64,000 bases of DNA from an uncultured Thermoleophilia bacterium (GCA_963834905.1 CAWIDR010000023.1:15356-79355); one strand, 5' to 3'; positions 9,727 to 64,000 are shown, counted from the first letter of the stretch. Notes: a model not told the origin generated them from the sequence alone. Numbers and translations are program-made.

Positions 9727-9748
9727 TTTTTTTTTTTTTTTTTTGTTT
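9727..9748. repeat. T22 homopolymer in a 76-bp AT-only spacer between convergent genes
   Basis: Read directly. The spacer 9724-9799 is nearly 100% A/T. Confidence 0.9.
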
Positions 9749-9799
9749 TGTGTTATTTATTTTATGAGTAAATATTTGTATTTGTAATGTTAAAATGTG

Positions 9800-10373
9800 T
9801 TATTCGTCTTCCGGAGGCTCTTTGGCGGCGCCATAGCTGCCGATGCGCTCGCCCAGCGACCAGTACTCACCCTCGACGTAGGCGATCGGCGTGAGCTTCT
9901 TCGTCTGCACGCGTCCCGCGCGCGTCGAGGACGTCCTGGTCGTACTGCACGGCCACGATCTCGGCGATGTAGAGGTCGTGCGCGCCGAGCGCCAGCTGGT
10001 GCCGCACCACGCACTCGATGTTGATCGGGCACTCTTCGATGAGCGGCGCGTCGACGAGGCTGGCCGGACGCGCCGTGAGGCCGAGCTCCTCGAACTTGTC
10101 GTGCTCGGCCCCCGACCACACGCCGGCCAGGTCGACCTCTTCGAGCTGCTCGGCGCGCGGCACGTTGACGACGAACTCGCGCGCCGCGTTCACGAGCCGG
10201 TGCGAATGGCGTGTCGGACGGATGGCGACGCTCAGCATGGGCGGCGTCGAACACACCGTGCCGGCCCACGCCAGCGTGATGATGTTGGGCTTCTCCTTGC
10301 CGTGGCCGGCCACGCTCAGCAGCACCACCGGCGTCGGCAGAAGCGCAGCCGACGGTTTGCGCTCGATCTTCAT
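9800..10373 (-). CDS. Flavin reductase-like domain protein (HpaC/NADH:FMN oxidoreductase family), with a C-terminal frameshift
   Basis: LLPTPVVLLSVAG...NIITLAWAGTVCSTPPMLSVAIRP...FVVNV is the flavin-reductase-like fold. The alternate frame gives the expected tail LTPIAYVEGEYWSLGE. Confidence 0.65.
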
Positions 10374-13512: not shown

Positions 13513-15845
13513 GTGATGGCGGAGGCGGGCACACCTCTACGCGTCCGGCAGGCGGCGGACCTGCTCGGCGTCAGCCCGGCGACGGTGCGTCGCTGGGCCG
13601 ACAGCGGCCGCCTGGTCAGCCGGCGCACCAAGGACGGAGAGCGCCGCTTCCACCTCGACGACCTCAAGGCGAGCTCGGCACCGGCCGGCGGCCGTCCTCG
13701 CCATCTCTCCAGGCCGACGCGGAGCGGCGCTACCAGCTGCTCCTCGAGACGAGCGTCGAACTGGCGTCCTCGCTCGACCTCGACGAGGTGCTGCAATCGG
13801 CCGCACGCCGCCTCGGCTCCGCGCTCGACATCCCCGACTGTGACTTCTACCGGATCGAGGACGACAGGCTCGTGTGCGTGGCGTCGAGCACCAAGGGCCG
13901 CTTCGACGGCGTCTGGACCGGTCGCGAGTTCTCCCTGCGGGACTGGCACTCGGCGCGCCTGGCGATCGAGCAGCGCCGCGCGGTCGCCTTCGACAGCGTC
14001 GACGACCCGCGCCTGACGGCGGCGGAGCGCGACTCGGCGCTCGCCTACGGCCAGCGCAGCTTTCTCGTCCTCCCGCTCATCGCCCGCGACGAGGTGATCG
14101 GCACGATCGAGCTGCTCGACCACACCGAGCGCCGCTTCACGGAGGAGGAGATCGGGGTCGCAGAAGCCGTCGCCAAGCTCGTCGCCCTCGCCATCGAGCG
14201 GGCCAAGCTGCACGACGAGGTCAAGCGACTGCACGTCGCCAACCTGCGCGCCCTGAGCTCGGCGCTGAGCGCCAAGGACTACTACACGCTCGGCCACGCC
14301 AGCCGCGTGGCCGGCTACGCCGCGCTGCTGGGACGCGAGCTGGGGTGGAACGACGAGCGCCTGACCGAGCTGCAGAACGTCGCCTTCCTGCACGACATCG
14401 GCAAGATCGGCGTCTCGGACCGCGTGCTGCTCAAGGCCGGACCGCTCACCTCGGAGGAGTGGGAGCTCGTGCGCCAGCACCCCGGCATCAGCGCCGAGAT
14501 AGCGCGACCCCTCTTCCGCGACGAACTCGTGACCGGAGTGCGGCATCACCACGAGCACTTCGACGGCGCGGGCTACCCGGACGGCCTGGCCGGCGCGGAC
14601 ATCCCCGAGGTCGCGCGCCTGCTCTGTGTGGTGGACTGCTACGACGCGATGTCCAGCGAGCGGCCGTACCGGCGCGCGCTCAGCTACCGCCAGTGCCTGG
14701 CGGAACTGCGCCGGCTCGCCGGCACGCAGTTCGACCCGGACCTGGTCGCGGCGTTCCTCAAGGCCTTGCGACGCCTGCGGCGACGCCGCGCCGAGGTGGA
14801 CCGGCTCGCCGCGCGGGCAGCGGCGCGGATCGACCCCGCGGCCCACGTCCTCCTGCGCACGCGCGCCGACGAGGCGCGTCCGGAGTACGCGGAGATGGTG
14901 ACCGCGCTGCGCGAGTTCCGCGACCAGAACCCGCCGGTGCGCTTCATCACGAGCTTCGCGACGACCGAGGAGCGCTGCATCTCCGTGCTCGACACCGGCG
15001 AGGACGAGAGCGAGGTCTCGCACGTCGGCGACCAGTGGCTGGCGCAGGACGTGCTCGCCGCCGTGCTCGCCGGCGGCAGGAGCACCGCCAACGTGCTCAA
15101 CGCCGACGACTACGGCGTCTGGGTGACGGGCACGGCCCCGCTCTGCGCCGGCGACGGGACCGTGCTCGGGGCGGTCACGGTGGACGTGCCGGCGCTCGAA
15201 TGGGCGCCGTCCCTCCAGAGCGACCAGTCACACACCCTCGCGGCCATCCTCCGGGCGGCGACCATCCGCTTCAGCAGAGCCGAGGTCGAGGCGATCACCG
15301 ACGGCCTCACCGGCCTCTACAACCACCGCTACCTGCACGAACGCCTCGAGGAGGAACTCGACCGCGCCCGCCGCTACGACGACGACGTCAGCCTGCTGTT
15401 CATCGACTGCGACGAGTTCAAGCAGTTCAACGACGCGTACGGACACAAGCTCGGCGACGGGGCCCTGGCGCGCATCGCGCGCATCCTGGAGTCGTGCAGC
15501 CGGCGCGTCGACCTGGCGGCGCGCTACGGCGGCGAGGAGTTCGTGCTCGTGCTGGTCGGCACCGACGGCGCCGGCGCGCGGACGGTCGCGGAGCGCATCC
15601 GCGCGGAGGTCAAGACCACGGGCCTCGCCGGCGGCCAGCCCCTGACCGTCAGCATCGGCATCGCCTCGTATCCGCAGGACGCCGCCGGCAAGGACGAACT
15701 GCTCGACAAGGCCGACTGGGCGATGTACGCGGCCAAGTGTGGCGGCCGCGACCTCGTCCTGTCTTTCCGCGACGAGCTCGTCGCCCGGGATTGGGTGTCG
15801 CGGAGCGGCGGCCGCGCTCCGGCGCTGCCTCGCGACCACCGCTGA
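13513..15845 (+). CDS. Multidomain c-di-GMP signalling protein: MerR-type HTH + GAF + HD-GYP phosphodiesterase + GGDEF diguanylate cyclase, 1 frameshift near 13700
   Basis: HTH: LLGVSPATVRRWADSGRL. HD-GYP: HASRVAGYA...LHDIGKIGV...HHEHFDGAGYPDGL. GGDEF: LTGLYNHRYL...RYGGEEFVLVL. Confidence 0.75.
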
Positions 15846-15863: not shown

Positions 15864-15940
15864 CCGGCGTGACGCCGGAGAGGGCGGGCGGTCGGACTGA
15901 CCGTGGGGGATCCCGCCCGCCCCATCCGGCGTCACGCCGG
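15864..15940. terminator. Long GC hairpin (bidirectional terminator candidate) between convergent genes
   Basis: CCGGCGTGACGCCGGAGAGGGCGGGCGG...CCGCCCGCCCCATCCGGCGTCACGCCGG is a near-perfect inverted repeat. Confidence 0.45.
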
Positions 15941-15951
15941 ACCTGCGCAGC

Positions 15952-15981
15952 GGCCGGCCGGGCGGGGGAGTCCGGCCGGCC
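15952..15981. terminator. Second GC hairpin, GGCCGGCCGG-N10-CCGGCCGGCC
   Basis: Perfect 10-bp inverted repeat read in the sequence. Confidence 0.45.
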
Positions 15982-16005
15982 GCTTCCTTCATGCCGGCTC
16001 TGCGC

Positions 16006-17460
16006 TCATGCCGGCAGCAGCACGGTGAACACCGAGCCTTCGCCCTCGACGCTGGTCGCCTCGAGGCGGCCGCCGGCGCGCTCCACGAGGCGTTTCACGA
16101 TCGAGAGACCCAGGCCGTTGCCCTCGAGCTCGCGCGTCTCGGCACGCTTCTCGCGGAAGAACTCATCCCAGAGCCGCGCCAGGTTCTCCTCGCGGATGCC
16201 GATGCCGGTGTCGGCCACGTCGAGGCGCAGCCAGCCGTCCGCGACGGCGCCGCGCACGGTCACCGTGCCGGCGTCGCGGTTGTACTTGACCGCGTTGCCG
16301 ACGAGGTTGCTGAGCACGAGCTTCAGGTCGTCGGGACGGATGAGCGCCGGCGGCAGGCCGGCGGCGAGCTCGGTGACCACGGTCACCCCGCGCTGGGCGC
16401 CGCGCTCGCGAGCGAGCTCCACGACCTCGTCCAGGACGGGGGCGACCGGGACGAGCTCGGGCTCCTCGCCCTCCGGCGCCTGCTCGCTGCGCGCCAGCGT
16501 CAGCAGGTCGCGGATGAGCTGGGTCAGGTTGTCGATGCGGTGGTCGGCGCGGGCGACCATCGGGATGTAGGGGTCGAGGTCCTCGCCGAGGCTCTTGTCG
16601 GTCACGACCTCGAGCAGGCCCTTGATGGAGCCGAGCGGGCTCTTGAGCTCGTGCACCATGGTGCGGATGAACTTCTGCTTCTCCATGGCCAGGCGCCGCA
16701 CCTCGCTGATGTCGCTCAGCGTGAGGATGCGGCCGCGCGCTTCGCCGCCGTCGCCGCGGAAGGTGACGATGCTGGCCATCCAGGCCTGATCGCCGAGGTC
16801 GAGCTGACGGACGGTCCGGTCCTTGGCCGGCGCCGCCAGCTGCTCGCCCAGCGGCGCCAGGGCGCCGCCGCCGAGCAGTTCCCGCGCCGGCCGCATGAGC
16901 GCCTCGTCCTCGCCGAGCTCGAGCAGTTCGAGCATGGGCGGGTTGGCGAGCACCACGTCGCCGTCGCGGTTGACCACGAGGACGGCGTCGCGCAGGGAGC
17001 TCACCAGGGAGTGCGTCTGGGTCTTCTCCTCGGCGAGGGCGAGCAGGCTCGCCTCGTGCTCGGCGCGCAGGCGGTCCGCCTCCGTGCGCGCCTTCTTGTG
17101 GCGCAGCAGCGTCTCGATGACGCCCTCGAGGTCGTCGGGGCTGAACGGCTTGGGCAGGAAGAAGTCCACGCCCTGCCGCGTCGCGGCGATCGCCGTGTCG
17201 ATGTTGGCGTAGGCCGTGATCATGCACACCATGGCTTCGCAGCCGCGCTCCTTCATGGTCCGGAGCAGGCTGAGGCCGTCGGTGTCGGGCAGGCGGTAGT
17301 CGAGCAGGGCGACGTCGTAGTCGCGCTCGTCCAGCGCCGCCAGCGCCGCCGCGCCGTCGGCGGCCTCGGCGACGTCGTAGCCCTCCATCTGGAGGATCGT
17401 GCGGATGCCGCTGCGCACGCCGTACTCGTCGTCGACGATGAGGATGCTGCCCTCGGCCAT
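16006..17460 (-). CDS. Hybrid sensor histidine kinase: N-terminal receiver (REC) + PAS + HisKA + HATPase_c
   Basis: REC: ILIVDDEYGVR...ALLDYRLPDTDG...KPF. H-box: MVHELKSPLGSI. ATPase: LSNLVGNAVKY...DTGIGI...GNGLGLSIV. Confidence 0.85.
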   Translation of the reverse strand: MAEGSILIVDDEYGVRSGIRTILQMEGYDVAEAADGAAALAALDERDYDVALLDYRLPDTDGLSLLRTMKERGCEAMVCMITAYANIDTAIAATRQGVDFFLPKPFSPDDLEGVIETLLRHKKARTEADRLRAEHEASLLALAEEKTQTHSLVSSLRDAVLVVNRDGDVVLANPPMLELLELGEDEALMRPARELLGGGALAPLGEQLAAPAKDRTVRQLDLGDQAWMASIVTFRGDGGEARGRILTLSDISEVRRLAMEKQKFIRTMVHELKSPLGSIKGLLEVVTDKSLGEDLDPYIPMVARADHRIDNLTQLIRDLLTLARSEQAPEGEEPELVPVAPVLDEVVELARERGAQRGVTVVTELAAGLPPALIRPDDLKLVLSNLVGNAVKYNRDAGTVTVRGAVADGWLRLDVADTGIGIREENLARLWDEFFREKRAETRELEGNGLGLSIVKRLVERAGGRLEATSVEGEGSVFTVLLPA

Positions 17461-17485
17461 GGTGATCTCCTCTCCCCGCCCCTCG

Positions 17486-17911
17486 TCAGACCGCGGCCGG
17501 CTCGCCGGCGGAAGTCGCCACGGCGAGCTCCTCGATCACGGCGAGCACCTGCTTGCCGGTCACCGGCTTGTCCAGGAACCGGGCCAGCCGGGACCACTCG
17601 CGCAGCCCGCCGCTCTCGCCGTCGAACCGCGTGCCGGTCTCGGCGGCGACGCCGCTCAGCATGACGAGCGGGACATGGGCAAGCCGCTCGTCCTTGCCGA
17701 TCCGGTAGCCCAGACGGAACCCGTCGTCCACGTGCTCCATCATCAGGTCGAGGAAGATGATCGCCGGGGTCTCGCGCTCGAGCAGCGCCAGCGCCTCGTC
17801 GGGGGACTCGGCGGTGAGCACGCGGTAGCCGCGCGCCTCGAGGTAGACCTGCTTGCTCTCCAGGAAGTCCCGGTCGTCGTCGACGAACAGCACGGTGGTG
17901 GGGGTGGTCAT
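17486..17911 (-). CDS. Stand-alone CheY-like receiver domain protein
   Basis: TVLFVDDDRDFL...IIFLDLMMEHVDDGF...MLSG...KP. About 141 aa with no output domain. ATG overlaps the stop of the upstream gene (ATGA). Confidence 0.8.
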   Translation of the reverse strand: MTTPTTVLFVDDDRDFLESKQVYLEARGYRVLTAESPDEALALLERETPAIIFLDLMMEHVDDGFRLGYRIGKDERLAHVPLVMLSGVAAETGTRFDGESGGLREWSRLARFLDKPVTGKQVLAVIEELAVATSAGEPAAV

Positions 17912-19969
17912 GGCGTCGCTCCCTTGTCGTCGATCAGCGCGGCCTGCCCGCCGGCGTGGGTGCTGGGAAGCTCCACGTGGAAGGTGGTGCCGCGATCCGT
18001 CTCGGTGTCGAACCAGATCGTGCCGTTGTGCATCTTGACGATGCCGTAGCTGATGGGCAGGCCGAGGCCGGTGCCCTTGCCGATGCTCTTGGTGGTGAAG
18101 AAGGGCTGGAAGACCTTGTCGCGGGCGCTCCGCGGGATGCCGGCGCCCTCGTCGCTCACGGCGATGTGGACGCGGCCGCCGTCCTCGACCTCGTGGGCGC
18201 TCACGCGCACGGTGCCGTCCCGGCCCTCCATCGCCTCGACCCCGTTCTTGACCAGGTTCACGAGCACCTGGGTCATCTGGTCGCGGTCGAGGTCGGCGCG
18301 GAGGCCGGGATCCACGTCGACCACGAGGTCGACGGTGTGCCCGGCCGGCTGCGCCGTCGCGGCGGCGGAGTCGACCGCCTGCTGCACGACGTCGTGCACG
18401 GAGGCGTTCTCGACGTGCACGCGGCTCTGCCGCGCGAAGTCGAGCAGGTTGCCGACGATCTTCTTGCAGCGCTCGCTCTCCTCGGCGACGAGGTTGAGGT
18501 CGTGGTCCAGGTCGTCGCGGTCCTTGAGCTTCTTCCCGAGGATGTGCGTGTACAGGAGGATCGTGCTGAGCGGATTGTTGAGCTCGTGGGCGACGCCGGC
18601 GGCCATCTGGCCCATGCTGGCCAGCTTCTCCGTGTTGATGATGTGGCGGTGCACGTCGCGCATCTCGCTCCACGGCACGTTGAGCTCGGCGCAGACCCGC
18701 TCGGCCTGGTCGATCATGAACGGCAGGCACATGGCGTCCTCGGCCATGCCGGAGTAGACGGCGACCGCCTTGGCGCGGCAGGTCGGGTAGCCGCAGGCGC
18801 CGCAGTTCAGTTCGTCCTCGGGGAAGAACTTGTTGGTCCTCCCGAGGATGTCGCGGATCTCGTCCTCCGTCGGCTCGGGCAGCCGCTGGTCGTCGGGCGT
18901 GTACGCCCGGCTGAGGACGAGGCCGGGGAAGTTCTCGGCGAGGCGGTCGTCCTCGGCCTCGCCGGCGGCGCTCACGGCCGCGGCCTCCGCCTCCCGGCGA
19001 CAGTCGGCCACGTACTCGCCGACGCGGCGCTTGCGCAGGAGGCCGGGCTCGGAGGAGCTGATGCCCGGCCCGCAGTAACAGCCACGGCACATGAGGGCCT
19101 CCACGAGCAGCGTCTGGCCCGTGTCGGCCTCGCTCAGGCTGTCCAGCACCTCGATGGTCTCGTCGTGGCCGCTGACCACGAGCACGTCCGGGTCGAGCAT
19201 GCCGCGGTCCATGCCGGCGGCGTCGAGCAGGCCGCCGGGCAGCGGGAACACCCGCGCCCGCCCGGCGGCCGGCGCGTCCCACTCCGCCTCCGCCGCCTTC
19301 GCGGGGTCGACGCCCCGCGCCGCCAGCAGCCGGTGGGCCTCCTGCAGCGTGAGCACCTCGTCGATCACCGGCGGCAGCTGCGGGTCGCGGGCCTCCGCCT
19401 TCTTGGCCACGCACGGGCCGATGAAGACGCAGCGCACCTCGTCGCCGTAGAGCTCCTTCACCGCCAGGGCGGTGGCGATCATCGGCGACACGATCGGCAC
19501 GAGGCGATCCACCATCTCCGGGTGGTACTTGCGCACGTACTCGGCGACGGCGGGGCACGCGGTCGCGATGTGCACGCCGGTCGGGTTCGCCTCGAGGTGC
19601 TCCGCGTAGGCGCGGCTCACGAGGTCGGCGCCCTGGGCGACCTCCACGACGTGGTCGAACCCGGCCGCCTTGAAGGCGCCGACGACCTGCCCGGCGGGCA
19701 CGTCGAAGCCCGCCGGGAACGACGGCGCCAGCAGGGCGGCCACCGGGGCGTCCTCCTCGAGCATCCAGGACGCCTGCTCGAGCCCGCTCAGGTACGCCTT
19801 GGCGTTCTGGGAGCAGACCAGCGTGCAGTTGCCGCAGGCGATGCAGCGCTCGTCGACCACGAACGCCTGGCCGTCCTCGATGCGGATCGCCTGCGCCGGG
19901 ACAGTCGCGCACGCAGGTGTAGCACCTGCGGCAGTTCTGCTTGATCGTCGTGATGATCGTGCCGCTCAT
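17908..19969 (-). CDS. Sensory [FeFe]-hydrogenase-like protein fused to a histidine kinase (HydS-type H-domain + Cx2Cx4Cx16C cluster + HisKA + HATPase_c), 1 frameshift near 19880
   Basis: N-terminal 2x[4Fe-4S] ferredoxin: CRRCYTCVRDCP, CIACGNCTLVC. H-domain motifs: ATACPAVAEY (L1 variant TACP), FIGPCVAKKAEA (L2), EALMCRGCYCGPG (L3 variant). Then CGACGYPTCRAKAVAVYSGMAEDAMC (Cx2Cx4Cx16C). HK: AHELNNPLS, LVNLVKNGVEA...DEGAGI...GTGLGLPISY. Confidence 0.8.
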
Positions 19970-19980
19970 CCGGGCTCCAG

Positions 19981-21702
19981 TCAGACCGCCGCGACCCTGT
20001 CGGGGCGGCGGTCGGTGTAGGTGCGGTGCAGCAGGCGGTGGGAGACCTCGCCCAGGGGGCGACCGAGGAGCTCCTCGTAGAGCGCCTGCACATCGGCGTT
20101 CTCGTGGGAGCGCCGGGTGCGGGAGCGCCGGTCCACTTCGTAGAGGCGCTCCAGCCGTTCCTGGACCGCCTGCGCATCGGTGTCGTAGGGCTGCCCGCCG
20201 CCGCCGATGCAGCCGCCGGGGCAGCTCATCACCTCGACGAAGTGCATGCCGGCCTCGGGATCGAGCAGGCCGTCCACGGACTCCTTGACGCGCCCGAGGC
20301 CGTTGACGACGGCCAGGTTGAGGCGGACGCCGGCGGCGGTGACGGTGAAGCGGCGCACGCCTTCGGCGCCGCGGGCCTCAGCCACCTTGGGCCCGCCCTC
20401 CAGCTCCTGGCCGGCGACGAGCAGGTACGCCGTGCGCACGGCCGCCTCCATGACGCCGCCGCTGCCGGCGAACAGCCGGCCGGCGCCGGTCGCCTCGGCG
20501 AACGGCTCGTCCAGCGGCGCCTGCTCGGTGAAGCGCGCGAACTCGACCCCGAAGCGGCCCCACAGGTGCTCGAGCTCGCGCGTGGTGAGCACGTAGTCGA
20601 CGTCGCTCTGGTCCTGCGCCTCGAACTTCTTGGCCGTGCACGGCATGAGCGAGACGACCACGAGGCGCTTGCCCGCGAGGTCCGCGTGCTTCGGGTAGAT
20701 CTCGCTGATCAGCGCGCCGGCCATCTGCTGCGGGCTCTTGCAGGTGGAGAGGTGCGGGATCAGGTCGGGCCGGTGCGTCTCGACGAAGTTCACCCAGGCC
20801 GGGGAGCAGCTGGTGAACATCGGCAGCACGCCGCCGTTCTGGATGCGGTCGAGCAGCTCGGAGCCCTCTTCCATGATGGTCAGGTCGGCGGCGAAGCCGG
20901 TGTCGAACACGGCGTCGAAGCCGATGCGCTTGAGCGCCGCCGCCAGCCGCTCGAGCATCACGCGGACGCCCTCGCTCTTGCTGTGGCCCTCGAGCAGGGT
21001 CGCCGGCACTGCCGGCGCCACCTGCGCGACCACCACGGCGTCGGGGTCGGCCAGGGCCCTGACGACGTCGTCCACCTGGTCGCGCTCCACGATCGCGCCC
21101 GTGGGGCACACGCGCGCGCACTGGCCGCAGTACACGCACTCGCTCACGTTGAGGCCGATGGCGAAGCCGGGCGCCACCTTCGTCTTGAACCCGCGCCCGG
21201 TGAAGTCGATGGCGCCGATGCCCTGCACGTCGTGGCAGATGGTCACGCAGCGGCCGCAGAGGACGCACTTGTTGGGGTCGCGCCACAGCGCCGGGGAGCT
21301 GATGTCCACCGGGTGCTGCTTGACGGCGCCGACGTAGCGGCGCTGCCGCACGCCGAGGTCGCCGGCCAGCGTGGCCAGCTCGCAGTCGCCGCCGCGCACG
21401 CAGGAGAGGCAGTCCTGCGGATGGCTCGCGATGAGCAGTTCCATGATCGCGCGCCGCGCCTTGAGCACCCGCGGCGTGTGCGTGTGCACGGCCATGCCCT
21501 CGGCCGCCTCGAGCGTGCAGCTGGTGAGCAGCCGCGGGTCGCCCTCGACCTCCACCACGCAGAGGCGGCAGGAAGCGGCCGGGCTCGGAGCCCAGTCGAG
21601 GGAGCAGAGGTGCGGGATCTCGATGCCGGCGCGGCGGGCGGCCAGGAGCACGGTCTCCCCGCGGGTCGCCTCGATCTCTTTTCCGTTGATGGTGAGCTTC
21701 AT
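19981..21702 (-). CDS. hydA: [FeFe]-hydrogenase catalytic subunit HydA (M3-type: 2Fe-2S + His-ligated 4Fe-4S + 2x4Fe-4S + H-cluster domain)
   Basis: MKLTINGKEI...CSLDWAPSPAASCRLCVVEV, HPQDCLSCVRGGDCE, CVLCGRCVTIC...CVYCGQCARVCP. H-cluster motifs: MFTSCSPAW, SLMPCTAKKFEA, VEVMSCPGGCIGGGGQP. Confidence 0.85.
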   Translation of the reverse strand: MKLTINGKEIEATRGETVLLAARRAGIEIPHLCSLDWAPSPAASCRLCVVEVEGDPRLLTSCTLEAAEGMAVHTHTPRVLKARRAIMELLIASHPQDCLSCVRGGDCELATLAGDLGVRQRRYVGAVKQHPVDISSPALWRDPNKCVLCGRCVTICHDVQGIGAIDFTGRGFKTKVAPGFAIGLNVSECVYCGQCARVCPTGAIVERDQVDDVVRALADPDAVVVAQVAPAVPATLLEGHSKSEGVRVMLERLAAALKRIGFDAVFDTGFAADLTIMEEGSELLDRIQNGGVLPMFTSCSPAWVNFVETHRPDLIPHLSTCKSPQQMAGALISEIYPKHADLAGKRLVVVSLMPCTAKKFEAQDQSDVDYVLTTRELEHLWGRFGVEFARFTEQAPLDEPFAEATGAGRLFAGSGGVMEAAVRTAYLLVAGQELEGGPKVAEARGAEGVRRFTVTAAGVRLNLAVVNGLGRVKESVDGLLDPEAGMHFVEVMSCPGGCIGGGGQPYDTDAQAVQERLERLYEVDRRSRTRRSHENADVQALYEELLGRPLGEVSHRLLHRTYTDRRPDRVAAV

Positions 21703-21713
21703 GGTCGTTCCTC

Positions 21714-23709
21714 TCAGGCGACGGCCAGGACGGCCTGCTTGGGGCAGGAGTCGGCGCAGGCGCCGCAGCCGGTGCAGCGGTCGACGATGATGGAGTGGGC
21801 GAACTTGCGCTTGCCGAGGATCGCGCCGCTCGGGCAGTTCTTGGCGCAGAGGGCGCAGCCGGTGCAGAGCTCGGGGTCGATGTCGAAGACGCGGAGCCCC
21901 GTGCAGGCGCCGGCCGGGCAGGCGCTCTCCATGACGTGGGCCTCGTATTCGTCGCGGAAGAACCGCAGGGTGCTGAGCACCGGGTTCGCCGCGGACTGGC
22001 CGAGGCCGCAGAGAGAAGTGTCCTTGACGATCTCGGCGAGCTCCTCGAGGTGAAGGATGCCGCGGAACCGCTCGAGGCGGCGCAGGTCGTCGCCGACCGG
22101 CCGCTCGGTGAGCTCGGCCAGGATCTCGTACATGCGCGTCGTGCCTTCGCGGCAGGGGGTGCACTTGCCGCAGCTCTCGTTGCGGATGAACTCCATGAAG
22201 AACTTGGCCACGTCGACCATGCAGGTGCGCTCGTCCATGACGACCATGCCGCCGGAGCCCATCATCGCGCCGAGCTCCTGCAGCGTGCCGTAGTCGGTCG
22301 CCACGTCGAGGTGCGCGTCGGGGATGCAGCCGCCGCTGGGGCCGCCGATCTGCACGGCCTTGATGTGGTGGCCGGCCGGGGCGCCGCCGCCGATGTCGTA
22401 GACGACCTCGCGCAGCGGGATGCCCACCGGGACCTCCACGAGGCCGGTGTTCCGCACGCGGCCGGAGAGGGCGAAGACCTTGGTGCCGGCCGCGTCGCCG
22501 TAGCCCAGATCGCGGAACCACTCGGCGCCCTTGTCGATGCACCGCCGGCACGTTGGCCAGCGTCTCGACGTTGTTGAGCACGGTCGGGCAGCCGTGGAGG
22601 CCGGAGACCGCGGGATACGGCGGGCGGGGACGGGGCATGCCGCGCCCGCCCTCGATGCTGGCCAGGATCGCCGTCTCCTCGCCGCAGACGAAGGCGCCGG
22701 CGCCCATCTTGATGGTGATGTCGAAGTCGACGAGCGTGCCGAGGATGTTGCTGCCGAGCAGCCCCGCGGCGCGGCACTGGCGGATCGCCTCGCTGAGGCG
22801 CTCGATCGCCAGCGGGTACTCGGCGCGGCAGTAGACGTAGCCCTTCGTCGCGCCGATCGCGTAGGCGGCGATGAGCATGCCCTCGACGATGCGGAACGGG
22901 TCGCTCTCGAGCACGGCGCGGTCCATGAACGCGCCGGGGTCGCCCTCGTCGGCGTTGCAGATGAGGTACTTCTGGCTGCGCGCCTGGTCGTGGGCGACCT
23001 TCCACTTCCGGCCGGTCGGGAAGCCGGCGCCGCCGCGGCCGCGCAGGCCGGAGGCGATGACCTCGTCGCAGACCTCGGCCGGGGTCATCGTCGCCAGCGC
23101 CCTGGCGGCGGCGCGGAAGCCGCCGGCGGCCAGCGCCGCGTCCAGGCTGGCCGGGTCGATGACGCCGCAGTTGGCGAGCACGACCTTGGTCTGCCGGGCG
23201 AAGAACGGCGTCTCGCCGATCGGCTTGACGCCGCGGTACAGGTCGTCGGGGTCGTCATAGCGGCCGAGCAGGAAGCGGTTGTGCAGCTGCCCGTCACCGA
23301 ACACGGTCTGGAGGAACTCGTCGATCGTCTCCGGGCCCAGGTCGCAGTAGCTGAGCCGCACGCCGTCGGCGGTCATCAGGTCGACGAAGACCTCGCGCTG
23401 GCAGTAGCCCACGCAGCCGGTCTCGACGATCGGCACGCGCAGGCCGCGCCGCTCGAAGTAGGCGTTCATCTTCTCGATGACGGTGAGCGCGCCGTTGGCG
23501 CGCCCGCAGGTGCCGGCGCCGACGGAGAGGATCATCCCGTCGCCGCCGCGGCGGGCGCGCTCGAGGCGCGCCGCCCGCTCCTGCCGGCAGGCGTCGTCGT
23601 CGTGGCAGATCGGTCCGTGGTCCACGCAGGCGATCGCGTCGGCGCAGGGGGTCGCCGCGGTGTGCCGGCAGCGCGTGCAGCACGGGGTCATGAGCTGGCT
23701 GTGGTTCAT
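21714..23709 (-). CDS. hydB: NuoF-like NAD(P)H-binding flavoprotein subunit of the hydrogenase (HydB/HndC), with N-terminal thioredoxin-like [2Fe-2S] domain and C-terminal 2x[4Fe-4S], 1 indel near 22530
   Basis: [73 protein letters not shown]...[12 protein letters not shown]. Confidence 0.85.
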
Positions 23710-23778
23710 GCTCGTCTCGATTCTCTGTGGTCCATGGCTCTGGTCACGCCGTCCCTCTCGGCCCCTCCGGGCCGGCCC

Positions 23779-24270
23779 TCAGGCCGCCGCTTCGTCGCTC
23801 GCGGCCTTGACGTCCACCTCGTCCAGGAGCGCGTCGAGCTTCTCCGTCGTGAGGTGGCCGTAGAACTCGCCGTCCAGCTTGACCACCGGAGCGATCGAGC
23901 AGGCGCCGAGGCACGCGACGCTGATGACGGTGAAGCGGCCGTCGGCCGAGTTGCCGTCGTCGCGCAGCTTCAGCCGCCGCTTCAGGTGCTGGGCGAGCGC
24001 GAGACTCTGCTTGACGTGGCACGCCGTGCCGCGGCAGAGCTCGATCACGTGCTCGCCCAGCGGGGCGAAGCGGAACTGGTTGTAGAACGTGGCGACGCCG
24101 TAGACGCGGCTGACCGGCGTCTCCAGAGCCTCGGCCACCCGGACCATCGCGTCCGTGGAGATGAACCCCTCGGCCGCCTGGATCTCCTGCAGCAGCGGGA
24201 TCATCTGCTCGCGCGTGAGCTGTTCCCGGCGTCCGGCGATGATGGATTCGGCGGTGGTCACGACGGTCAC
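23779..24270 (-). CDS. hydC: NuoE-like [2Fe-2S] subunit of the hydrogenase (HydC/HndA)
   Basis: LCRGTACHVKQS...VACLGACSIAPVVKLDGEFYG is the thioredoxin-like 2Fe-2S motif pair. GTG start overlaps the upstream stop. Confidence 0.8.
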   Translation of the reverse strand: MTVVTTAESIIAGRREQLTREQMIPLLQEIQAAEGFISTDAMVRVAEALETPVSRVYGVATFYNQFRFAPLGEHVIELCRGTACHVKQSLALAQHLKRRLKLRDDGNSADGRFTVISVACLGACSIAPVVKLDGEFYGHLTTEKLDALLDEVDVKAASDEAAA

Positions 24271-24686
24271 GCGCCCTTCGCGACGGCCTCGTCCGCGGCC
24301 AGCAGCTCGGCGATCGCGGCGGCGAGGTCGGCGAGCTTGACCGGCTTCTCGAAGAACTTGGCGGCCGGCCATTCCCGGTACATCATCGGCTCGAAGACGT
24401 GCGTCTTGGTCTCGAGTTCCTTGGTGAAGCCGCTCATGATGATGATCGGGATGCGCTCGGTCTCGGGCTCGTCGCGCAGCTTGAAGGCCACGTTGAAGCC
24501 GTCGGTGTCGTAATCCATCATGATGTCGAGCACCACGAGGTCGGGGCGCTGCACGGCGAGCCGCTCGCGCGCCTCGATGCCGCTGTGGGCGGTGTCCACG
24601 TCGTACCCGCGGGCCTCCAGGAACGCCTTGACGCTGGCGACCAGGTCGCGGTCGTCGTCCACCATCAGGATGCGCTTGGCCTTCAT
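24267..24686 (-). CDS. Stand-alone CheY-like receiver domain protein, first gene of the hydrogenase operon
   Basis: MKAKRILMVDDDRDLV...LVVLDIMMDYDTDGF...IIMSG...KP. A strong RBS GGAGGAG precedes the ATG at 24686. Confidence 0.8.
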   Translation of the reverse strand: MKAKRILMVDDDRDLVASVKAFLEARGYDVDTAHSGIEARERLAVQRPDLVVLDIMMDYDTDGFNVAFKLRDEPETERIPIIIMSGFTKELETKTHVFEPMMYREWPAAKFFEKPVKLADLAAAIAELLAADEAVAKGA

Positions 24687-24755
24687 GACTCTCCTCCTCT
24701 GTTCCGCTGCGCACTCGGCGTCCGCCGGTACGAGCCGTTTGGTTACTGTCTTCAC

Positions 24756-24773
24756 AGTGAAATCGTTCACAGT
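24756..24773. promoter_or_regulatory. Rex operator-like palindrome between rex and the hydrogenase operon
   Basis: cAGTGAAATCGTTCACAg fits TGTGA-N6-TCACA with one half-site mismatch. It lies 70-90 nt upstream of the receiver ATG. Confidence 0.45.
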
Positions 24774-24790
24774 AGCCTCGAAAAAAACCC

Positions 24791-25529
24791 TCACGCCGTC
24801 AGCCCCTCGGCCTCGTCCGAGCTCAGCTCTTCCGGCTCGCCCGGCTCCGTCCTCGCCAGGAACGAGAGCATCTCCAGCTTGGACGAGATGTCCGTGTTCT
24901 CGACGAAGCACCCTGCCGGCGCCTTGACGCGCTTGGGGACGAAGTTGAGGACCGCGTGGACGCCGGAGGCGCTGACGCGGTCGACCAGCGTCTGCAGCCC
25001 TTCGGGCCGGGACGCGAGGATCGCCATGTGGACGTCGAACTCGCGCAGCACCGTCTCCAGGCGATCGACGTGGTAGCAGCGCCGGCCGGCGAAGACACGG
25101 CCGACCTTCTCGCTGTCGACGTCGAAGGCCACGGCGATGTGGAAGCCGCGCTCCTCGAAGCCACGGTAGGAGAGGAGGGCCCTCCCCAGGTCGCCCACAC
25201 CGAACAGCGCGACCGCCTGGGTCTCGTCGGTGCCCATGATGCGGCTGATCGTGCGGCTCATCTGGTAGACGTTGTAGCCGCGAGAGATGTTGCCGAAGGT
25301 GCCGAAGCTGGCGAGGTCGCGACGGAGCTGCGCGGGAGTCACTCCGACCAGCTCGGCGAGCGTCGTGGGAGTGGATGTTCTCGACGCCGTCGCGGTCGAG
25401 CTCCTCGAGCACCTTGCGGTAGACGCTGAGCCGCTCGACCGTCTGCAGAGAGACCCGCTTGGCGGGCCGGTCCTGCGGCGTCAGGGCCTCAGGGCCGTTC
25501 TGTTCGCTGGTGCTCAAGGTTCCTCCCAC
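24791..25529 (-). CDS. rex: Redox-sensing transcriptional repressor Rex (winged-helix + NADH-binding Rossmann), 1 frameshift near 25340, start uncertain
   Basis: N-terminus: AKRVSLQTVERLSVYRKVLEEL...GVENIHSH. C-terminus: FGTFGNISRGYNVYQ...VALFGVGDLGRALL...ILASRPEGLQ...VHAVLNFVP. Confidence 0.75.
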
Positions 25530-25540
25530 GGTTCCTATGG

Positions 25541-25558
25541 CTGTGATTCTATTCACAG
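25541..25558. promoter_or_regulatory. Rex operator-like palindrome upstream of rex (possible autoregulation)
   Basis: cTGTGATTCTATTCACAg equals TGTGA-N6-TCACA. Both half-sites are perfect. Confidence 0.5.
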
Positions 25559-25654
25559 TAGCACCGAGCTGTCAAGCGCCCGTCGGCCTCCCGCTCCGAC
25601 ACGGCCGGTCCCCCGGCCAGGCGGGCGGCGCTGCGGCGATGCTGACGAGGGGAG

Positions 25655-25675
25655 GGCCGGCCGTGACGGCCGGCC
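25655..25675 (-). terminator. GC hairpin downstream of the homocysteine methyltransferase gene
   Basis: GGCCGGCCG-TGA-CGGCCGGCC is a perfect 9-bp stem. No U-tract. Confidence 0.4.
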
Positions 25676-25685
25676 GAGCCGGCTG

Positions 25686-26570
25686 CTAGCGGCCCAGGGC
25701 CGCGGCGAGCGCGGCGATGGAGGCGGGCGGCGTGCCGCAGCACCCGCCGACCACCCGTGCGCCGAGCGCCGGATACGTCGCCACCACGGCGGCGAAGTGC
25801 TCCGGCGTCTCCGCATAGACGGTCTCGCCGGCCTCAAGGCGCGGCTGGCCGGCGTTCGGCTGGGCATACGTGAGCCCGCCGCCGAGCTCGGCCAGGACGG
25901 GGACCAGGTCCGCCATCGGCTCGGCGGTGATCTCGCAGTTGCAGCCGACGAGGTCGGCGCCGGCGTCCTTGAGCGCCTCGACGGCGGCCTCCGGGCTCAC
26001 GCCCATCATGGTGCGGAAGCCCTTGGCGGCCGGCTTGAAGGTCATGCTGGCCAGCACCGGCCGTCCATCCGCCGCGGCGACGGCCGCCTCGACGGCGATC
26101 GTCGCCTCGGTGAGGTCGAACATCGTCTCGATGTTGAGGAGGTCGACGCCGCCGGCTACGAGGGCGCGCGCCTGCTCGGCGAACGTGGCGCGCAGCGCGT
26201 CGGGCTCGGCGTTGCCCATGGGCCTCACCATCTGGCCGCAGGGGCCGATGTCACCGGCGACCCAGCGTCCGGGGAACTCACGGTCACGGACGCCGACGGC
26301 GAGGCGCGCGCCGGCCTCGTTGAGCTCCACGGCGCGCGCCGAGAGCCCGTGAGCCTCGAGGCGCATCGCGGTGCCACCGAAGGTGTTGGTGTTCACGATG
26401 TCCGAGCCGGCGGCGTAGAAGCTGCGGTGGATGTCCTCCACCTCGGCCGGGTGCGAGACGTTCCACTCTTCCGGACACTCGCCGGCGGCGAACCCGCGCT
26501 CCATGAGCGCGCGGCCCAGACCGCCGTCGAACAGCAGCGGGCGTTCGGCGATGAGCGCGAAGAGATCCAT
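25686..26570 (-). CDS. Homocysteine S-methyltransferase (Pfam S-methyl_trans, MmuM/BHMT-like)
   Basis: LFDGGLGRAL at the N-terminus. NTF...GVDLLNIETMFDL in the barrel. C-terminal VVGGCCGTPP is the zinc-binding Cys pair. Confidence 0.85.
   Translation of the reverse strand: MDLFALIAERPLLFDGGLGRALMERGFAAGECPEEWNVSHPAEVEDIHRSFYAAGSDIVNTNTFGGTAMRLEAHGLSARAVELNEAGARLAVGVRDREFPGRWVAGDIGPCGQMVRPMGNAEPDALRATFAEQARALVAGGVDLLNIETMFDLTEATIAVEAAVAAADGRPVLASMTFKPAAKGFRTMMGVSPEAAVEALKDAGADLVGCNCEITAEPMADLVPVLAELGGGLTYAQPNAGQPRLEAGETVYAETPEHFAAVVATYPALGARVVGGCCGTPPASIAALAAALGR

Positions 26571-60625: not shown

Positions 60626-64000
<3,375 letters not shown>

Follow-up and report, generated by a model that had tools for sequence, protein, structure and literature searches.

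How does a hydrogenase that is built as a sensor pass its signal on? Among the sensory [FeFe] hydrogenases, the papers searched, up to 2026, describe only two characterised enzymes, HydS from Thermotoga maritima (TmHydS) and from Thermoanaerobacter mathranii (TamHydS). The window studied here, a 64-kb stretch (64,000 nucleotides) of an uncultured Thermoleophilia-type genome, raises this question in a concrete form, as it carries a sensory-type hydrogenase domain fused to a histidine kinase beside the genes of a second hydrogenase. Do these genes belong to one regulated unit, and what might the sensor speak to? We consider it likely that an autoregulated rex is followed here by a single Rex-controlled unit, which encodes an A3-type HydABC together with a dedicated signalling set.

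The domain content and gene order given in a preliminary description proved right in a Pfam profile search. On the minus strand the order is rex, REC1, hydC, hydB, hydA, hydS-HK, REC2 and HK2:

24791–25517, minus strand: rex, NADH/NAD+-sensing repressor (Put_DNA-bind_N, PF06971, and CoA_binding, PF02629)
24267–24686, minus strand: REC1, single-domain response regulator (Pfam Response_reg, E 2.4e-18)
23779–24270, minus strand: hydC, NuoE-like [2Fe-2S] subunit (2Fe-2S_thioredx, E 3.6e-45; NCBIfam NuoE/HoxE family)
21714–23709, minus strand: hydB, NuoF-like FMN/NADH subunit (Complex1_51K, SLBB, NADH_4Fe-4S, two Fer4)
19981–21702, minus strand: hydA, M3-type catalytic [FeFe]-hydrogenase subunit (Fe_hyd_lg_C, E 4e-77)
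17908–19969, minus strand: hydS-HK, sensory-type H-domain fused to a histidine kinase (Fe_hyd_lg_C, E 5.9e-41)
17486–17911, minus strand: REC2, single-domain response regulator (Pfam Response_reg, E 1.2e-13)
16006–17460, minus strand: HK2, hybrid kinase (REC, with Response_reg E 3.4e-28, PAS_4, HisKA and HATPase_c)

Are these genes intact? Insertions of one nucleotide break the frame of rex (around 25361–25362), hydB (around 22539–22540) and hydS (around 19897–19901). Each of them is absent in the eight relatives used for comparison, and the three open reading frames are whole only when the insertions are repaired. The preliminary description had overlooked all three. A programmed frameshift was rejected as an explanation, since every relative compared lacks the insertions. 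If the frameshifts were real, the locus would be a decaying one with a dead hydrogenase and sensor operon, a reading that draws on the interruption of three genes out of eight and on the fact that loss of hydCBA does occur among relatives. We regard it as very improbable. Save for the single-base insertions, the operon genes show a perfect codon-position GC3 signal and 87–97% protein identity to intact orthologues. Like frame breaks are found in at least nine other genes of the window and in the essential rpoB, and the operon is no more densely hit than its surroundings, where the neighbouring genes show at least ten breaks over some 14 kb. The window further contains an obvious long-read artefact, 920 nt of poly(A) with junk sequence behind it, and where relatives have truly lost genes, several went at once in clean deletions that left scars, as opposed to point indels. 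Breaks of this kind occur throughout the window, rpoB included, and together with the poly(A) run they make it almost certain that the three frameshifts stem from errors of long-read assembly and not from gene decay.

The spacing of the genes is compatible with one transcript. The gene rex lies upstream of the operon genes on the same strand, and is thus co-directional with the operon rather than divergent, as had been proposed. The accompanying statement that neighbouring genes overlap or are at most 30 nt apart holds for most junctions, with gaps of 11, 11 and 25 nt and 4-nt overlaps between the REC1 stop and the hydC start (GTGA) and between the hydS stop and the REC2 start (ATGA), but fails for hydC–hydB (69 nt) and rex–REC1 (104 nt). 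A terminator scan gave five matches where 2.3 were expected and revealed no convincing terminator on the coding strand; the single coding-strand match is situated inside hydB and looks like a chance hit. Rfam and tRNA scans of the whole 64-kb window returned no match, so that a riboswitch or other RNA element does not appear to be involved. From the spacing we infer that the row is co-transcribed.

The case for Rex control starts with the protein itself. Using tblastn with the L001 Rex, the start of rex was placed at a TTG codon with GGGAGGA in front. Once the 1-nt insertion is removed, and only then, the product is composed of a winged-helix N-domain (PF06971) and a Rossmann NADH domain (PF02629), and it reaches 201.6 bits against NCBIfam NF003995 (cut-off 126). 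Its putative promoter and two operator-like sites are as follows:

25546–25575, minus strand: sigma-70-like rex promoter (TTGACA, 18-nt spacer, TAGAAT; 11 of 12 matches)
25542–25557, no strand assigned: Rex box 1 (TGTGAATAGAATCACA), one mismatch, overlaps the rex promoter at its -10 element
24756–24771, no strand assigned: Rex box 2 (TGTGAACGATTTCACT), between rex and REC1, predicted operon operator, one mismatch

The -10 hexamer (25551–25546) falls within Rex box 1, and autorepression of rex is therefore predicted. Rex box 2 is overlapped by a degenerate second box at 24756–24741. Both boxes are operator-like sites of the TTGTGAA-N4-TTCACAA type. Within the 64 kb, these are the only two sites that match TGTGAAN4TTCACA with one mismatch or fewer, against 0.05 expected by chance; the palindromes announced earlier for both the operon and rex are indeed in place. 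Phylogenetic footprinting supports the predicted Rex control of the operon as well: a box precedes rex in 60 of 62 related loci, and 40 of the 62 have one between rex and the gene that follows it, often paired with a tandem box 15 nt downstream, while just 14 matches occur elsewhere in 1.27 Mb. In the 22 of 62 loci without a box between rex and REC1, rex may be the first gene of the operon.

Which enzyme would this operon produce? HydA displays the M3 accessory-cluster architecture in its Pfam domains (Fer2_4, NADH-G_4Fe-4S_3, two Fer4, Fe_hyd_lg_C and Fe_hyd_SSU) and the H-cluster motifs FTSCSPAW (P1), MPCTAKKFE (P2) and EVMSCPGGCIGGGGQP (P3). Its best PDB matches are HydA1 of T. kivui (8a6t_A, E 2.7e-164) and of A. 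woodii (7q4v_A); the top NCBIfam model, NF040763, scores under its cut-off. HydA has a Ser where CpI has the cluster ligand C300. The TSCSP of its P1 is also present in A. woodii HydA1, an active bifurcating enzyme, in the PDB alignment with 7q4v_A. A Ser at the second Cys position of P1 is reported to be common in A3 enzymes (PMC11406978). Residues 61–660 of the repaired HydB align with the HydB homologues 7t2r_B (E 1e-199), 7q4v_B, 8a6t_B and 7p5h_B, and this alignment passes straight over the repair site. Pfam and the HydB alignment identify HydB as NuoF-like with a thioredoxin-like region at the N-terminus, an FMN/NADH site and a C-terminal 2x[4Fe-4S] domain, and HydC as NuoE-like, as in A3 enzymes. 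Together, these features support a trimeric [FeFe]-hydrogenase of group A3, of the bifurcating/confurcating type. The HydABC complexes of T. maritima, T. kivui and A. woodii (7p5h, 8a6t, 7q4v) comprise all three subunits with like domain sets; by comparison, HydB carries an extra Cys/His-rich N-terminal segment of about 55 residues here, and a receiver gene is translationally coupled to hydC.

The fifth gene of the unit that would follow rex encodes the sensor. HydS-HK consists of a 2x[4Fe-4S] region, the H-domain, a Cx2Cx4Cx16C [4Fe-4S] domain, HisKA (E 2.5e-15) and HATPase_c (E 1.4e-26); Pfam places Fer4_9/10/7 at residues 10–56 and FeS (PF04060) at 387–416. Its NCGACGYPTC-x16-C is an exact fit to the Cx2Cx4Cx16C pattern, with all four cysteines invariant among the 136 homologues over which conservation was scored. 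Homologues of full length fall into more than 120 clusters. Pfam found no PAS domain in the protein, HisKA following directly after the Fe-S domain, which is why we do not count it among the M2f-type (TmHydS-type group C) members. The preliminary description had made lack of cofactor-binding residues in the H-domain a point to be checked; the four cysteine ligands C300 (TAC), C355 (GPC), C499 (LMC) and C503 (RGC) are retained, as judged from the alignment with PDB hydrogenases and from the homologues. C355, C499 and C503 are invariant in 136/136, as are K358, E361 and the H-box His, and C300 is found in 135, the remaining one having a gap. Conservation extends to the eight N-terminal Fe-S cysteines (133–135 of 136) and the N, G1 and G2 boxes (135–136 of 136). 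The position of the proton-relay cysteine C299 is Ala here and never Cys in the homologues (A 116, T 12, D 4, S 3), M353 is replaced by Gly and M497 by Leu in all 136. This pattern supports a cofactor-competent, sensory-type H-domain on a complete histidine kinase. REC1, REC2 and the REC domain of HK2 align in their acidic pocket, Asp, Thr/Ser (Ser in REC1) and Lys with CheY D12/D13, D57, T87 and K109, and probably represent three phosphorylatable receivers. The proposed coupling of a bifurcating-type HydABC to an H-domain–kinase fusion and three receivers is thereby borne out by domains and conserved residues. Pfam recognised no DNA-binding response regulator in the cluster, Rex being the sole DNA-binding protein. 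An AlphaFold2 model of the closest intact HydS-HK (P0001, 39-sequence alignment; mean pLDDT 68.9) is confident for the H-domain and the ATP-binding domain and poor for the Fe-S domains, the linker and the DHp region, and is therefore silent on how a signal crosses between them.

Is this arrangement peculiar to one genome? We compared 83 related loci, 79 of which came from a genome scan, with taxon labels from Actinomycetota, Syntrophales, Acidobacteriota, Hydrogenedentota, Bacteroidales and Victivallales. The eight-gene order is identical in 47 of them, most others end at contig borders, and rex is part of the cassette in 65. The layout, earlier called unusual, is standard for a family that spans several phyla. 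The occurrence of group C1 proteins beside A3 genes has, moreover, been published: C1 proteins with HATPase_c adjoin them in Hydrogenedentota (21/53; PMC11406978), and a C1 protein lies near Hnd in Petrimonas mucosa (PMC7768429). In our survey, homologous loci labelled Hydrogenedentota and Bacteroidales share 40–44% identity and a like architecture; they match what the two papers term C1 and so lend indirect support to a C1 placement. The locus had also been put forward as a candidate model system; given an uncultured source and the many indel errors of its assembly, a carrier in culture, for instance P. mucosa, would serve better. The exceptions to the common order are instructive. Six distinct loci, spread over four or more separate positions in the tree, have lost hydCBA and kept the sensor, REC1 and HK2. 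REC2, whose presence was judged locus by locus since it cross-matches REC1, is absent in four of these and internally deleted in one, so that it is lost or degraded in five of the six.

HydS-HK fits the description of HydDB group C1, the 'histidine kinase-linked (putative)' [FeFe]-hydrogenases (Sondergaard et al. 2016, PMC5037454), in that a sensory-type H-domain is tied to histidine-kinase signalling. Published C1 descriptions make no mention of a cassette with rex, two receivers and a REC-PAS kinase, or of Rex operators. In contrast to the Hydrogenedentota paper, which doubted the H-cluster motifs (PMC11406978), we find the four cysteine ligands invariant or nearly so. The claim that the histidine kinase-linked [FeFe] hydrogenases are biochemically uncharacterised is upheld: the papers searched, up to 2026, describe no characterised member. 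The two characterised sensory enzymes are therefore the closest guides, although their own signalling role is unproven (PMC13104023). TmHydS (group C, M2f) shares with HydS-HK the N-terminal 2x[4Fe-4S], the H-domain and the C-terminal Cx2Cx4Cx16C, the exchanges of C299 for Ala (A131) and of M353 for Gly (PMC8163306, PMC10055695), and a location alongside another hydrogenase. It ends in a PAS domain, however, where the Fe-S domain of HydS-HK leads straight to HisKA and HATPase_c. TamHydS (group D, M2e) is without PAS, as is HydS-HK, but its kinase-like protein is a separate gene, whereas the kinase of HydS-HK is fused and complete, with HisKA bearing the phospho-His. M497 is Leu in HydS-HK and TamHydS and Ser in TmHydS; M353 is Ser in TamHydS, as opposed to Gly in HydS-HK.

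What could such a cassette do? In the Rex-controlled unit that we favour, HydABC would dispose of NADH and reduced ferredoxin as H2, and HydS-HK, the two single-domain receivers and the REC-PAS hybrid kinase would form the signalling set. A high NADH/NAD+ ratio would release Rex and switch the operon on. Binding and oxidation of H2 at a slow, proton-relay-less H-cluster would alter the redox or conformational state of HydS-HK, and this in turn its autokinase or phosphatase activity. Phosphoryl groups would flow from HydS-HK to REC2, which is translationally coupled to hydS, to REC1 and to the REC domain of HK2, and HK2 would relay to an output encoded outside the cluster. REC2 might be the branch tied to HydABC, because it goes with the loss of hydCBA. 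That HydS-HK senses H2 at all we infer from its likeness to TmHydS and TamHydS.

The sensor could instead respond to electron pressure, that is to reduced ferredoxin or the Fe-S chain of HydABC, by way of its three accessory [4Fe-4S] clusters, while the H-cluster would do no more than buffer redox changes or let electrons out. The 12 cysteines of these accessory clusters are kept in all or nearly all homologues, and hydS-HK is always directly 3' of hydA in the loci surveyed. The C-terminal cluster of TamHydS is also unresponsive to H2, which leaves the link from H2 to the C-terminal domain unproven (PMC13104023). Yet invariance is just as strict for the H-cluster ligands, K358 and E361, which places the [2Fe] site under selection; the sensor set survives in lineages without an adjacent HydABC, which argues against obligatory docking to that enzyme; and characterised relatives react with H2 at high affinity and low turnover (PMC8163306, PMC10055695). 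We hold electron-pressure sensing to be rather unlikely. A different proposal, which we find quite unlikely, makes HydS-HK a fourth ('T') subunit of HydABC that acts post-translationally, in a regulatory or catalytic role, and does not head a transcriptional two-component pathway. Such a subunit would suit a cluster without a DNA-binding response regulator, the co-loss of REC2 with hydCBA fits post-translational control of the enzyme, and the Hydrogenedentota study casts neighbouring group C proteins as BfuT (PMC11406978). It is difficult to reconcile with the conservation of complete HisKA and HATPase_c alongside three receivers and a second kinase, and with the retention of sensor, REC1 and HK2 in the loci devoid of HydABC.

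The favoured unit can also be taken one step further. The cassette might be a horizontally mobile homeostat for H2 and NADH, complete in itself, with a phosphorelay that lacks a conventional DNA-binding regulator; its phosphorylated single-domain receivers would act by protein contact, REC2 on HydABC, as suggested by its loss or degradation with hydCBA, and REC1/HK2 on Rex. This is an unlikely extension, but if it were true, a single repressor and a single enzyme would integrate H2 pressure and NADH/NAD+.

Related logic is known from other systems, among them Rex regulons to which hydrogenase genes belong. The sensor of Ruminococcus albus is of a PAS-domain, phosphatase-linked type, in contrast to the classical two-component kinase that would be the transmitter here, and in our family rex sits physically within the cassette (65/83 loci). 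Joint control of bifurcating hydrogenases by Rex and HydS has been proposed for R. albus and Solidesulfovibrio fructosivorans, where a Rex operator in the hydrogenase promoter is accompanied by a putative sensory hydrogenase, as at this locus (summarised in PMC10084766). Among [NiFe] enzymes, the histidine kinase-linked group 2b system HoxBC, HoxJ and HoxA follows a like logic: H2 is sensed by a hydrogenase of low turnover, and the kinase that it informs controls the expression of hydrogenase (PMC5037454, PMC5665086). The metal site and protein family of HoxBC are, however, unrelated to HydS-HK, and HoxBC and HoxJ are separate proteins with a known regulator, HoxA, as opposed to one polypeptide.

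The operon is real, and its class is already catalogued. The fusion of H-domain and kinase offers a simple readout, namely autophosphorylation and phosphotransfer compared between H2 and an inert gas, for which the comparative data name REC2, REC1, HK2 and Rex as candidate partners; gene co-loss predicts a joint role for REC2 and HydABC. Uncultured anaerobes of the Actinomycetota, Syntrophales, Acidobacteriota, Hydrogenedentota and Bacteroidales commonly carry the cassette, which therefore likely shapes the release of H2 in soils, sediments and digesters.

ORF lists are noisy in the window because its G+C content is about 70%, and a codon-position (GC3) analysis resolves an unbroken row of coding segments on the minus strand from 15900 to 25700. 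Gene identities were assigned by searching the translated segments against Pfam, while coordinates and junctions were read directly from the sequence.

Genes of the operon and their Pfam domains
25517..24791, minus strand: rex; Put_DNA-bind_N and CoA_binding; TTG start after GGGAGGA
24686..24267, minus strand: REC1; single-domain receiver
24270..23779, minus strand: hydC; NuoE-like [2Fe-2S]
23709..21714, minus strand: hydB; NuoF-like, with Complex1_51K, SLBB, NADH_4Fe-4S and two Fer4
21702..19981, minus strand: hydA; Fer2_4, NADH-G_4Fe-4S_3, Fer4, Fe_hyd_lg_C and Fe_hyd_SSU
19969..17908, minus strand: hydS-HK; 686 residues with Fer4, Fe_hyd_lg_C, the PF04060 Fe-S motif, HisKA and HATPase_c
17911..17486, minus strand: REC2; second single-domain receiver
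17460..16006, minus strand: HK2; REC-PAS-HisKA-HATPase_c kinase

The gene content and order given in the preliminary description are borne out by these domains and junctions. Its divergent rex was a misreading: the gene is co-directional with the operon, 104 nt upstream of REC1 on the same strand. The genes are tightly coupled, and the proposed spacing of at most 30 nt or overlap holds for the gaps after hydB (11 nt), hydA (11 nt) and REC2 (25 nt), for REC1 and the start of hydC (GTGA), and for the end of hydS-HK and the start of REC2 (ATGA), but not for the 69 nt between hydC and hydB. The Pfam scan of the operon genes revealed no DNA-binding response regulator encoded in the cluster. Convergent with HK2 lies a gene for a GAF-HD-GGDEF protein (13788-15845, plus strand); in the related loci L001 and L002 HK2 is followed immediately by an arginase gene, which makes the cyclic-di-GMP gene an insertion specific to the window's lineage.

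Unnoticed in the preliminary description, the frame shifts by one base within a conserved motif in three genes of the row.

Frame breaks in the operon (slash, position of the break)
about 25361, minus strand: rex, within HSHD/LAELV
about 22539, minus strand: hydB, within NVPAV/IDKGAEWF
about 19897-19901, minus strand: hydS, within CVRDCP/AQAIRIEDG

Aligned with eight related genomes, each break proves to be an insertion of one base that the window alone carries. Deleting one base per gene yields full-length repaired proteins with 87-97% identity, end to end, to intact orthologues, and repaired HydB aligns with solved structures straight through the repair site. A tblastn comparison of annotated proteins from two related contigs with the window uncovered frame switches outside the operon as well, in genes for a pseudouridine synthase, a LytR-family protein (twice), an acetyltransferase, an arginase, an aminotransferase, a flavin reductase, an FAD oxidoreductase and an old-yellow-enzyme homologue; switches elsewhere in the window lie at about 7200, 9916, 11190, 12825, 27850, 31130, 31846, 32778 and 62750. 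The last of these splits the essential rpoB across two frames, with domains 1-3 in the ORF 62067..63992 and domains 6-7 in the ORF 60626..62656. Furthermore, an uninterrupted 920-nt poly(A) run (1947-2864) passes into a low-complexity stretch of about 800 nt rich in G, T and A (2865 to about 3700), which together look like a long-read assembly artefact; no coding signal shows between about 540 and 6500. Similar split matches are seen in many of the nearest relatives, themselves MAG assemblies.

Single-gene frame switches that include rpoB indicate indel errors throughout the window. One could read the three breaks as real decay of this operon copy into pseudogenes, yet that is highly improbable, since the same type of switch recurs in many non-operon genes, rpoB is broken too, the window carries the poly(A) run with its low-complexity sequence, and many MAG relatives show similar split matches. 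For the same reasons the breaks in rex, hydB and hydS are almost certainly assembly errors. The locus had been put forward as a candidate model system; the window's copy is a poor one.

The H-domain of HydS-HK, a HydS-like sensory domain fused to a histidine kinase, aligns with solved [FeFe] hydrogenases over all three cluster motifs. Its conservation was assessed in an alignment of 136 homologues, some of them distant and from other phyla. The H-cluster residues C355, C499 and C503 are invariant together with K358 and E361, C300 is present in 135 (the remaining homologue has a gap), the four cysteines of a Cx2Cx4Cx16C motif are invariant, and eight N-terminal Fe-S cysteines occur in 133-135. 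In the kinase, the phospho-acceptor His is invariant, and the N, G1 and G2 residues are kept in 135-136 homologues. Loss of cofactor-binding residues, given in the preliminary description as grounds for refuting its finding, is not seen in this set, where the ligands are invariant or nearly so. Judged from the alignment, the cofactor and catalytic residues are clearly under selection. No homologue has Cys (0/136) at the proton-relay position C299, which is occupied by Ala, Thr, Asp or Ser, while M353 is replaced by Gly and M497 by Leu throughout. Residue hallmarks of the putative sensory enzymes TmHydS and TamHydS (PMC8163306, PMC10055695) thus reappear in HydS-HK, which differs in having no PAS domain, its Fe-S domain passing straight into the kinase. 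The phospho-acceptor pocket is complete in all three receivers, namely REC1, REC2 and that of HK2.

HydDB defined group C1 in 2016 as 'histidine kinase-linked (putative)' (PMC5037454). A 2024 report found H-cluster motifs hardly detectable in the C1 proteins of Hydrogenedentota (PMC11406978), which probably reflects diverged signatures (TACP, GPCxxKKxE, ExLMCxGC) and not ligand loss.

How widespread is this arrangement? More than 120 clusters of full-length homologues share the domain architecture of repaired HydS-HK. Our set of 83 loci comprises 79 found by scanning a single genome for each species and four further loci; the exact order rex-REC1-hydC-hydB-hydA-hydS-REC2-HK2 is found in 47, and most others end at contig edges. 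Going by their record titles, the carriers include Actinomycetota (among them Thermoleophilia and Gaiellales), 'Deltaproteobacteria' (among them Syntrophales), Acidobacteriota, Bacteroidales, Hydrogenedentota and Victivallales. Variants lack REC1 (Hydrogenedentota), have rex at the 3' end (Bacteroidales) or place REC2 before hydS (Acidobacteriota). The arrangement, first taken to be unusual, is therefore the norm for the HydS-HK family and no oddity of this genome, and the cassette probably moves horizontally. Parts of it have been published: C1 proteins with a HATPase_c domain adjoin A3 genes in Hydrogenedentota (PMC11406978), a C1 gene lies near the Hnd hydrogenase in cultured Petrimonas mucosa (PMC7768429), and joint control of bifurcating hydrogenases by Rex and HydS has been proposed for other bacteria (PMC10084766).

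The Rex-box-like palindromes claimed upstream of rex and of the operon hold up well. The motif TGTGAAN4TTCACA, with at most one mismatch, has exactly two matches in 64 kb, where 0.05 are expected.

Predicted Rex boxes
25557-25542: box 1, just upstream of rex, overlapping the -10 hexamer of a near-consensus promoter (TTGACA-18-TAGAAT)
24771-24756: box 2, between rex and REC1

Among 62 related loci a box precedes rex in 60 and separates rex from the next gene in 40, with only 14 matches elsewhere in 1.27 Mb. Loci without the second box have either a short rex-to-operon spacer or tandem boxes before rex, and in these the operon probably starts with rex. Taken together, the predicted operators are good comparative evidence for autoregulation by Rex and for Rex control of the operon. 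A degenerate, half-overlapping Rex-like box with three mismatches lies at 24756-24741, 15 nt downstream of the operon operator. Its equivalent in several relatives has two mismatches (e.g. L009 5211, L039 5206, L044 9482), which suggests tandem Rex dimers at this operator.

The best solved-structure matches of HydA are catalytic subunits of electron-bifurcating HydABC complexes, from Thermoanaerobacter kivui (8a6t_A, E 2.7e-164), Acetobacterium woodii (7q4v_A) and Thermotoga maritima (7p5h_A). Repaired HydB matches the B subunits 7t2r_B (E 1e-199), 7q4v_B, 8a6t_B and 7p5h_B, and retains the C-terminal two-cluster ferredoxin domain that is missing in sub-types thought to be non-bifurcating (PMC11406978). 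The top NCBIfam model for HydA, 'NADH-dependent [FeFe] hydrogenase, group A6', scores 693.6 bits, below its 765-bit cut-off. The P1 motif of HydA (20809-20823, residues 297-301) reads TSCSP instead of TSCCP, with Ser at the CpI cluster ligand C300. This motif is kept in 65 of 68 related loci; because it is also present in A. woodii HydA1 (PDB 7q4v) and is described in the literature as frequent among group A3 enzymes, there without biochemical explanation (PMC11406978), it is, by sequence comparison, a known variant rather than a defect. HydB also carries a Cys/His-rich N-terminal extension with seven Cys (23709 to about 23530, residues 1 to about 60), which no solved HydB homologue covers; it is conserved in L002 (70% identity) and might form an additional metal site. 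In some contigs of Acidobacteriota and Victivallales the sensor cassette is followed, a few kb further downstream, by another REC-hydC-hydB(-hydA) cluster (L068 20608-21972; L082 18106-21943; L072 14097-16870).

Six distinct loci, spread over four or more separate positions in the tree, lack hydCBA beside sister lineages that retain it.

Loci that have lost hydCBA
L001: 9873-9989
L035: about 9727-9990
L030, L038, L044 and L057

Two of them retain a scar ORF that opens with the initial codons of hydC and closes with the final ones of hydA. REC2 is gone too in four of the six, has lost the phospho-acceptor Asp segment through an internal deletion in L001, and is intact only in L035, while Rex, REC1, HydS-HK and HK2 are retained. 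None of the related loci compared has hydCBA without REC2. This co-loss suggests that REC2 works with, or on, HydABC and that the function of the remaining sensor set extends past the adjacent enzyme. In the literature on related systems we found no description of such co-loss, of a cassette conserved in full together with rex and its operators, or of near-complete cluster-ligand conservation in kinase fusions.

Integrated NADH/H2 control, as proposed in the preliminary description, is plausible and conserved in its predicted Rex operators and sensor residues, even if the arrangement is common and partly published. Rex would repress at a low NADH/NAD+ ratio and leave its promoters as NADH builds up; HydABC would then turn electrons from NADH and reduced ferredoxin into H2, which HydS-HK would report via a slow H-cluster through altered kinase or phosphatase activity. 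Phosphoryl groups could pass to REC2, which is translationally coupled to hydS, to REC1 and to the receiver of HK2, and HK2 may hand the signal to an unlinked output. It is unlikely that HydS-HK senses redox state and not H2, and somewhat less likely still that it is a regulatory subunit of the HydABC enzyme acting post-translationally. For H2 sensing by HydS-HK, the [NiFe] sensor HoxBC-HoxJ-HoxA is a functional analogue. In the literature to April 2026, TmHydS and TamHydS are the only sensory [FeFe] hydrogenases studied, and their signalling mechanism is open (PMC13104023). With a kinase readout and named partners, HydS-HK makes the question of how these enzymes signal directly testable.
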